Assembly: GCF_000014265.1 (NCBI RefSeq)
Contig: NC_008312.1
Span: 5,760,001 to 5,792,000, forward strand
DNA: 32,000 nt
Direction of reading: 5' to 3'
DNA from: Trichodesmium erythraeum IMS101
Lineage (GTDB): Bacteria > Cyanobacteriota > Cyanobacteriia > Cyanobacteriales > Microcoleaceae
The number at the start of each line of letters is the position of its first letter. Position 1 is the stretch's first letter. A program made the position numbers and the translations under genes. The notes beneath the pieces were generated by a model. The model was given only the letters and a program-made list of their open reading frames with translations, did not search any database and was not told where the DNA came from. Below are positions 17,553 to 18,685 of this stretch, piece after piece.

Positions 17553-18685
17553 TAGACATCTCCAAAAATACTCAAACGCTTATACTAACTATTTTTAGTG
17601 GAGCGTTAGCTCACCTTGAAGATAGTTAATTTGTACAGTTTTATGGGCATTAGAGATACTTCGTATTACTAATTCAAATATTTATTAGACTTTGATTTAT
17701 TATTTTTATCTCAGTTTTTGATGATTTTTAATAATATAAATGAGCCAATTATTATTCACACTAAACCACATATTGTTAAAATTAATTTTTGATAATTATT
17801 ATCTTTTAATCTAAATCTTTATCTAGGAAATTTAAATATTTTAATTAATCTTATTACATGTTATACAAATATTATTTTTTTTGCTTTTTCTTGATTTTCT
17901 TCTTTGATTTATGGTAGCATTTATTTTTTTCTTAGTTTCTTTTTTAGTGTAGTAGTTCTTTCTACTCCTTCATCAGCTTTATCTCCTTAAAATTTTTGTT
18001 TTTCATCAAATTTATCCGGTTGTTTTCTTAATATTTTTACATCACTTACTGGACCTTTTTCTCCTACTATTACATCCACTATTTCTGTTCATTTTAGTGT
18101 CGTTATTATTTTATTTTTAAAAGTATAATTTTTCTTTTTTCATATTTGATATTTTTCTTGGTTTTTATATTTAATTAGTCTTTCTATGCCTTGTTATGTA
18201 CTATCTACAATTAATTATAATTCTGTTAATATCTCCTTTACCCATTCCAATTCATTTTCTTTTTTTTTACTTGTTATAATAAACTTGCTGGCAGTAATTA
18301 TCTGAGAATATCTATCCAGTAATGAAAAATATTATTAGCACTTCATTCACTTATACCAAAGTTAATTCCTAATGTTTGAAAACTTGGTATTTGATGTAAA
18401 TAAAATCATGTTAAAATTATTTATTCTTCCTTTGTTAAATTCTTTTTTCTGACTCCACCTGCTTTAATTAATCTTTTTTCTGTTTTCGCGATCGCCGACT
18501 TTTTTATGATTCTATTCTTGGGGCATTTTCTATTAATTTTATTAGCTGTTCATAAGTAATACCAATAATTCTTTTTGTTTATTTTGGATGATTATAAATA
18601 TATTCTAAAGTTGGATTCATTTGGGAGACTGTATACATAAATGGTTTTGATAATTTTACCTTATTTTCTATTTTAGAGATGTCTA
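17553..18685. repeat. Copy B of the dispersed T-rich non-coding element (single 423-bp unit at about 17805-18227)
   Basis: Framed by TAGACATCTCCAAAA (17553-17567) and the inverted TTTTAGAGATGTCTA (18671-18685), a 14/15 match. Collinear with copy A but diverged (roughly two-thirds identity by eye, with many indels). No ORFs. Confidence 0.7.

Follow-up and report, generated by a model that had tools for sequence, protein, structure and literature searches.

Evidence that two AT-rich elements of the Trichodesmium erythraeum IMS101 chromosome are dead copies of one IS5-family insertion sequence

Results

Genes and repeats of the locus

The window, by which we mean the whole 32-kb stretch of DNA that was analysed (positions below are counted from its first letter), is a low-GC segment of a cyanobacterial chromosome (~32% GC overall). 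It carries ftsH, an RTX-type pseudogene, an HMGL-family synthase gene, a gene of unknown function encoding 580 amino acids, dndE, thiD, ftsZ and ftsQ. Contigs of marine metagenome assemblies (including Tara Oceans) and the assemblies GCA_018457135.1 and GCA_022448615.1 match it at 99-100% identity; its nearest named relatives are Trichodesmium MAGs, Dapis and Okeania, whose syntenic loci were fetched by searching with the neighbouring 580-aa protein. Two stretches of the window, copies A and B, are homologous to each other, and their features are as follows.

7223..10205, minus strand: copy A, older and more degraded copy of a related insertion sequence (IS) with internal tandem amplification (2983 bp; local alignments to the intact IS and tblastn)
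7223..7237, plus strand: terminal inverted repeat of copy A, TAGACACCTCCAAAA (15-mer search)
7469..9620, minus strand: tandem array in copy A, 5.0 x 430 bp (Tandem Repeats Finder: period 430, 97% matches, score 4127)
10191..10205, minus strand: terminal inverted repeat of copy A, TAGATGTCTCCAAAA on the minus strand (15-mer search)
17553..18685, minus strand: copy B, degenerate full-length ~1.13-kb IS, very probably of the IS5 family, TAGAC...GTCTA (1,133 bp; maps to positions 1-1135 of the intact IS)
17553..17567, plus strand: terminal inverted repeat of copy B, lying beyond the transposase stop codon (15-mer search and inverted-repeat arms)
17729..18638, minus strand: transposase pseudogene of copy B (tblastn with the intact transposase P0001; 304/304 residues represented, in three reading frames)
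17759..18208, minus strand: remnant of the DDE_Tnp_4 catalytic domain, copy B (PF13359, E=4.5e-12, 46.3 bits against a cutoff of 24.8, profile positions 1-157 of 158)
18289..18441, minus strand: remnant of the HTH_Tnp_4 domain, copy B (PF13613, E=1.5e-11, 44.1 bits against a cutoff of 27, profile positions 2-52 of 53; coordinates converted from frame positions)
18671..18685, minus strand: terminal inverted repeat of copy B, lying before the transposase start codon (nearly identical to the terminal inverted repeat and subterminal sequence of the intact IS on contig L066)

Copy B lies in a 6.6-kb block (17197-23826) that is missing from L008, a more distant Trichodesmium contig, and in all other relatives sampled dndE and the 580-aa gene are only ~0.5-1.9 kb apart. 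The window also holds an intact IS630/Tc1-mariner copy at ~22653-23765, with IS630 debris nearby; in another strain (L014) the block 17197-23826 is present without this intact IS630 copy. Short-read contigs end at varied points within copy B (17580, 17907, 18082, 18203 and 18582), probably because it is a multi-copy repeat, and low coverage of AT-rich DNA may contribute to these breaks.

Two homologous copies bounded by inverted repeats

A first-pass annotation of the window had described copies A and B as collinear once four extra 430-bp units are removed from copy A, framed by an inverted 15-mer and alike in an excess of T over A on the plus strand. All of this is borne out. The two copies align by blastn in three collinear pieces of 64-69% identity (B 17664-18479 with A 9064-9870, 67%, E=1.65e-98; B 17650-18227 with A 7323-7899, 69%, E=7e-75; B 18499-18685 with A 10019-10205, 64%, E=1.6e-12), and aligned globally they reach a score of 944, where shuffled sequences reach 564 +/- 14. 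Copy B holds one unit of the 430-bp piece that is repeated in copy A, and the T-over-A bias is present in both.

The 15-mer TAGACATCTCCAAAA occurs, with at most two mismatches, at only four sites in the 32 kb, and these are exactly the four ends of the two copies, in inverted orientation; at up to three mismatches the window has seven matches, a number reached in 0 of 100 shuffles. The inverted-repeat arms of copy B (17549-17567 and 18671-18689) are 89% complementary. Outside the 15-mers the flanks of A and B align no better than shuffled sequences (P = 0.47 to 0.97). The homology thus ends at the 15-mers rather than running on far beyond them, and the weak similarity that had been suspected for about 35 bp past the right-hand pair is not upheld. 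Both copies thus begin and end precisely with true terminal inverted repeats, the 15-mers, which also bound intact elements on contigs L067, L068, L070 and L071. We rejected the idea of an invertible segment (inverton), as the orientation is the same in all contigs and there is no recombinase gene nearby. Another reading of the 15-mer, as part of a short conserved remnant of coding sequence ('LLDISK...') present in copy B and in the Trichodesmium MAG contig L027, is less simple than the end of an IS.

Copy B contains a transposase pseudogene

Neither copy has an intact open reading frame (the longest in either is at most 62 amino acids), and to this extent the earlier statement that neither encodes a protein stands; both are, nonetheless, minus-strand transposase pseudogenes. 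In copy B, tblastn with the intact transposase P0001 (E=4.5e-109) aligns residues 1-59 with 18638-18462, residues 46-128 with 18504-18256 (90%) and residues 125-304 with 18268-17729 (81%). Compared with the intact gene, the pseudogene has suffered two 1-nt deletions and 16 in-frame nonsense codons. The two Pfam domains become visible only when the whole minus-strand frame is translated with stops masked, and single stop-to-stop fragments of copy B gave no Pfam match. As the full DDE_Tnp_4 profile is covered, low-complexity, lysine-rich stretches are unlikely to be the whole basis of the resemblance to transposases.

The conceptual peptide of copy B retrieved 111 homologues, the best of which are intact proteins of 298-304 residues (85% and 80% identity) that all carry PF13613, PF01609 and PF13359. 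The source names of the homologues include 'transposase family protein [Trichodesmium sp.]' and 'IS5/IS1182 family transposase [Moorena bouillonii]'. A DUF4096-type IS5 transposase proved to be the wrong identity for copy B, whose domains are HTH_Tnp_4 and DDE_Tnp_4. The IS5 debris at 21731-21976, which is of the DUF4096 type, was examined as a partner of A and B and is unrelated, with no matching termini.

Intact relatives and family placement

A transposase gene with matching terminal repeats, which the first-pass annotation proposed to look for, does exist. Intact copies of 1133-1144 bp with the ends AGACATCTCCAAAA...TTTTGGAGATGTCT and a single ORF of 298-304 codons are found on the metagenome and MAG contigs L066, L067, L068, L070 and L071, of which L067 is from a Trichodesmium sp. 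MAG. The intact IS on L066 is 1,135 bp long and encodes a 304-aa transposase; copy B matches it from end to end with 92.3% identity over 1,130 aligned columns and four gap columns. The sense strand of the intact IS is 27% GC and 48% A. The 90% cluster of the top-matching transposase has 436 member sequences, among them ABG53823.1 of T. erythraeum IMS101, which is annotated just as 'hypothetical protein'. Shortened relatives occur as well: an internally deleted copy (L078 / L079) is 98% identical to the intact IS, and L027 has a truncated or deleted relative of ~375 bp (8049 to about 8425) in a different intergenic region, the first 190 nt of which match the left end of copy B at 75-79%.

IS elements of the IS5 family with HTH_Tnp_4 and DDE_Tnp_4 domains are bacterial relatives of the eukaryotic PIF/Harbinger elements, and NCBI labels their products 'IS5/IS1182 family transposase' or 'transposase family protein'. 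The elements described here resemble them in their single DDE transposase of ~300 residues, the same two Pfam domains, a length of ~1.1 kb, inverted repeats of 15-19 bp and a very short, A/T-rich target duplication. At 1133-1144 bp for the intact copies and 1133 bp for copy B, each with one transposase gene or its remains, they also fall within the compact size range of such IS elements (about 0.8-1.5 kb). They differ in that the window copies are pseudogenes and that copy A has a five-fold internal tandem amplification. On the basis of the two Pfam domains, the size, the inverted repeats, the short duplication and the source names, we would place the element, with high confidence, in IS5 / PIF-Harbinger at the level of the family only and without a subgroup (ISL2, IS1031, IS427 etc.). 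The NCBIfam IS5 equivalog models (NF033578-NF033581) all scored below cutoff, the best being NF033581 (transpos_IS5_4) with 59-78 bits against 140.

Copy A and its tandem array

Copy A is collinear with the same IS at about 63-69% identity. In local alignments, 9632-9880 corresponds to IS positions 198-449, each repeat unit to 461/464-882, and 7223-7468 to 885-1135. With P0001 as query, tblastn matches residues 7-181 to 10142-9495 (E=3e-14) and residues 239-304 to 7597-7394 (E=9e-19), and residues ~140-181 and 239-279 are found within the repeat units. A Pfam search of copy A alone gave no match; the identity of this copy rests on its DNA homology to copy B and on tblastn with the intact protein.

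Each 430-bp unit is a remnant of transposase residues ~140-279, that is, of the DDE core. The units are 97-99% identical to one another, and the amplification has added 1.7 kb to copy A. A period of 430 is not divisible by three, which rules out a gene for a repeat protein. It is found in every sampled Trichodesmium contig that reaches it, at 98-99% identity, although short-read assemblies collapse the number of units.

Target duplications, empty sites and short relatives

Copy B is flanked by ATT (17551-17553 and 18685-18687, with AGAC at 17554 taken as the start of the element proper) and copy A by ACT (7221-7223 and 10205-10207); the intact IS on L067 also has ACT on both sides. In three short metagenome contigs the left and right triplets are mismatched (ATT/AAT), and these contigs may be chimeric assemblies of a multi-copy repeat. 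If the ends are AGAC...GTCT, the target duplication would be 3 bp of the form A-N-T, and if they are TAGAC...GTCTA, it would be 1 bp; judged by the sequences, the two descriptions fit equally. Plant Harbinger/PIF elements use a T-W-A target, from which the apparent A-N-T target here differs, and most IS5 subgroups duplicate 2-4 bp. Canonical Harbinger elements make 3-bp duplications and their relatives 0, 2 or 3 bp (PMC12730594).

Short elements of 71-133 bp with the ends TAGACATCTCC...GGAGATGTCTA are bounded by the same motif in Okeania and Dapis. They have these termini in common with the IS and show precise presence or absence at orthologous sites, in the manner of MITEs (miniature inverted-repeat elements) derived from IS elements. 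For three, sister genomes show a precise empty site (L059 compared with L030; L031 with L032 and L033; L062 with L030 and L059), and these sites are compatible with AGAC...GTCT ends and a 3-bp A-N-T duplication or, just as well, with TAGAC...GTCTA ends and 1 bp. The search for empty sites in related strains therefore succeeded for these short Dapis and Okeania relatives; none was found for copies A or B themselves, and L008, which is without copy B, misses the whole 6.6-kb block.

The ends of the A/B family have the form TA-G..., as in IS630/Tc1-mariner elements, and a TA duplication at first looked possible. The three empty sites of the short elements rule this out. An IS630/Tc1-mariner identity was likewise rejected: the transposase has DDE_Tnp_4, not DDE_3, the empty sites L030, L032 and L033 misfit a TA duplication, and the terminal repeats differ (TAGCAATCC in IS630, TAGACATCTCC in the A/B family).

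A second repeat and the nonsense codons of copy B

A second repeat of 229 bp, with inverted ends of its own, is present at 11636-11864 and 20116-20344 (82% identical). As had been noted for a repeat of about 230 bp some 1.4 kb downstream of each copy, it starts 1,430 nt from the right end of both A and B. We have no explanation for this equal spacing other than coincidence.

The decay of copy B is mostly GC-to-AT, and its nonsense codons are in excess. The 16 observed, mostly GAA>TAA, compare with 4.3 +/- 2.0 expected from a uniform mutation spectrum and 8.8 +/- 2.5 from the observed one (P=0.005). Of 45 polarised changes on the copy B lineage, 18 are sense-strand G>T, all 18 in an ApG context, and just two are C>A. 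Of the 21 G>T changes inside the ORF, 14 hit positions where a stop results, compared with 35% of ApG sites (P=0.003). Among SNPs between strains in the window, transitions dominate. L072, taken as a further degenerate copy for the mutation pattern, gave no useful alignment. The pattern in this one copy probably stems from oxidative damage to guanines on the non-transcribed strand of a GAA-rich pseudogene that is transcribed. A directed, strand- and context-specific mutation process that silences Trichodesmium IS elements, a bacterial counterpart of fungal repeat-induced point mutation, would also produce an excess of this kind, and we regard it as highly improbable.

Discussion

We conclude, with a probability of roughly 0.93, that copies A and B are dead copies of one IS5-family (PIF/Harbinger-like) insertion sequence family, which is common in Trichodesmium. 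The homology, the domains, the termini, the flanking repeats and the intact relatives all point in this direction. The observations of the first-pass annotation are in this way partly to largely confirmed, and its interpretation is supported in part: these are mobile elements, recognisable by their terminal inverted repeats and transposase pseudogenes, and they are degenerate members of an autonomous IS family with intact relatives that have the same termini, not an undescribed non-autonomous element.

The living element is ~1,135 bp long, with inverted repeats of 15-19 bp, (T)AGACATCTCCAAAA, and one gene for a transposase of 298-304 residues with HTH_Tnp_4 and DDE_Tnp_4 domains. By homology with the family, we infer that the HTH domain attaches the transposase to the inverted repeats and that transposition would proceed by DDE-catalysed cut-and-paste, a short staggered cut at the 3-bp A-N-T leading to duplication of the target. 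Further copies of the IS would be bounded by (T)AGACATCTCC repeats with identical A-N-T flanks. Copy A would represent an independent, older insertion at ACT, which then decayed to about 63-69% identity, and its 430-bp DDE-domain remnant would later have expanded into the five-unit array, presumably through slippage during replication or unequal recombination. Copy B would have inserted at ATT and then been inactivated by the two deletions and the 16 nonsense codons. Both window copies keep their ends and could in principle be moved, if at all, only in trans. The AT richness and the plus-strand excess of T over A are explained by the A-rich transposase sense strand, which lies on the minus strand, together with GC-to-AT decay.

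The first-pass annotation had favoured a non-coding, non-autonomous mobile element of an undescribed type, in effect a large MITE, or else a duplicated regulatory or ncRNA locus. The lack of any ORF longer than 62 amino acids would be expected of such an element, as would its true inverted-repeat ends. The ~375-bp relative on L027 also fits this view, and the short MITEs that carry these ends in Okeania and Dapis, like the internally deleted copy L078, show that such derivatives arise. Trichodesmium is, moreover, known to transcribe tandem-repeat ncRNAs and transposase pseudogenes (PMC4143802). However, MITEs are tens to a few hundred bp long and without transposase sequence, whereas copy B, at 1133 bp, is as long as the autonomous IS and holds its whole transposase gene as a pseudogene, and copy A, at 2983 bp, is longer than full length and collinear with the same IS. 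Both have recognisable transposase remnants and neither is a short, internally deleted derivative. Nothing was found that suggests a regulatory locus. A scan of the whole 32-kb window with Rfam covariance models at gathering score gave no match, and tRNA and tmRNA scans of the window found none. Promoter-like matches are not in excess in copy A (22 compared with 33 +/- 5 in shuffles) and barely so in copy B (15 compared with 10 +/- 2.5), and a terminator scan of the two copies found none, although promoter and terminator scans say little in DNA this AT-rich. We consider the non-coding interpretation largely refuted, with very little probability left to it.

The data also contradict an ancient segmental duplication of a block comprising the element, the RTX gene and the 229-bp MITE, with decay of the second block. 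Its one attraction is the spacing: the distance from the right end of the IS to the 229-bp repeat is exactly 1,430 nt in both places, giving an offset of 8,480 at both landmarks. Yet neither blastn nor tblastx detects any resemblance between the intervening 1,430-nt stretches, the intact 365-aa RTX protein has no tblastn match downstream of copy B, and the flanks of A and B are unrelated on both sides. Copy B is much closer to an intact IS elsewhere (92%) than to copy A (64-69%), and the two 229-bp repeats share more identity (82%) than A and B do (about 67%). The absence of 17197-23826 from L008 and the short distance between dndE and the 580-aa gene in other relatives also speak against it. 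The separate triplets, ACT for A and ATT for B, together with the unrelated flanks, are those of independent insertions, which had been offered as the alternative; we see only the slightest chance that the block was duplicated as a whole.

It could also be that the 430-bp array or the decayed copies have been taken over by the host, as an ncRNA array, a source of promoters, or a nucleoid or AT-rich structural element. The near identity of the units (97-99%) means that the amplification is recent or has been homogenised, and the array persists at 98-99% identity in every sampled Trichodesmium contig that reaches it. The flanking DNA is equally identical among strains, however, and conservation of copy number cannot be judged from assemblies that collapse the array. 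The array has no Rfam match. Other tandem-repeat RNAs of Trichodesmium are very highly expressed, the precedent being an IMS101 ncRNA array of 736-973-bp units at 103-110 kb in the genome, next to Tery_0080, which reportedly has no similarity elsewhere (Pfreundt et al. 2014, PMC4143802). That array resembles the one in copy A in being a long tandem array in Trichodesmium non-coding DNA, for which the authors proposed the involvement of a mobile element; it is, however, a different locus with longer units, whereas the 430-bp units of copy A come from a transposase gene. We therefore think a host function of this kind very unlikely.

The interpretation of copies A and B as dead IS5-family elements thus corrects the picture of this locus: two seemingly exotic non-coding elements are degraded insertion sequences, and this accounts for their AT richness, strand bias, inverted ends and missing ORFs. 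They provide a concrete example for the known view that the large non-coding fraction of Trichodesmium is in good part decayed mobile DNA. Copy A illustrates that the remnants of an IS can grow further through tandem amplification, and the common termini tie an IS of Trichodesmium to the short MITEs of Okeania and Dapis.

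A block specific to the lineage of the window

The 6.6-kb block that runs from the 580-aa gene to dndE (17197-23826) is specific to the window's lineage and holds copy B of the IS5-family element, IS630 and IS5 debris, and a 229-bp repeat. The interval between these two genes is only about 0.5-1.9 kb in the related contig L008 and in every locus compared from Dapis, Okeania and other Trichodesmium.

Other mobile elements and their remnants, repeats and broken genes of the window
6236 to about 6560, +: TnpB / Cas12f1-like C-terminal remnant, directly downstream of ftsH
10499-11594: RTX-type (HemolysinCabind) gene, broken into 71-aa and 119-aa ORFs
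11636-11864 and 20116-20344: MITE-like 229-bp repeat, two copies, 82% identical
14696-15249: tandem repeat, 73 bp x 7.6, 92% matches, between the HMGL-family and 580-aa genes
19055-19400, +: IS630-like N-terminal fragment, debris
21731-21976, +: DUF4096-type IS5 fragment, debris (Pfam E=3.3e-08)
about 22653-23765: intact IS630-family element, 363-aa DDE_3 transposase, ends TAGCAATCC, TA on the flanks
23764-23971: tandem repeat, 71 bp x 2.9, adjoining the intact IS630 element

The intact IS630 element is missing from the strain contigs L014-L016, which are otherwise collinear, and is therefore a recent insertion in the window. The 229-bp repeat ends in its own inverted pair, AGCTCATCT...AGATGAGCT. 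At both loci, exactly 1,430 nt separate the right end of the IS copy from this repeat; the DNA in between is unrelated at the two loci. The RTX-type gene is whole (365 aa) in L004, L007 and L008. In L001 and L004, the gene call for the TnpB / Cas12f1-like remnant is a 46-aa PF07282 product. Short-chain dehydrogenase fragments occur in related contigs near the site of the 73-bp repeat.

Short and deleted relatives of the IS

Dapis and Okeania carry a family of MITEs, 71-133 bp long, that has termini, TAGACATCTCC, in common with the Trichodesmium IS, and CCCT-rich heptamer repeats are found inside its members. For three of these MITEs, sister genomes show the precise empty site.

Locations of the 71-133-bp MITEs in the compared contigs
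L024: 7185-7289
L029: 5777-5887 and 9392-9500
L031: 6197-6267 and 17429-17534
L032: 18859-18951
L041: 1390-1495 and 8639-8735
L059: 3772-3867
L062: 7344-7476

Two larger relatives were located. In Trichodesmium sp. MAG_R02, a truncated or deleted relative of the IS, ~375 bp long, lies between thiD and dndE (L027, 8049 to about 8425); its first 190 nt are 75-79% identical to 17553-17741 of copy B, and its far end is degenerate. The other, found in L078 (1251-2070) and L079, matches the intact element at 98% identity, lacks positions 500-807 and is possibly a step on the way to MITE formation. Its right flanks differ between the two contigs, which suggests that these are assembly chimeras.

Mutation pattern of copy B

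Compared with the intact reference on L066, the transposase pseudogene of copy B (17729-18638, -) carries 16 nonsense codons against the 4-9 expected, 10 of them GAA>TAA. Sense-strand G>T accounts for 18 of the 45 changes on the copy B lineage and C>A for two; every one of the 18 G>T changes lies in an ApG context. The mutation signature of copy B is specific to both strand and context.
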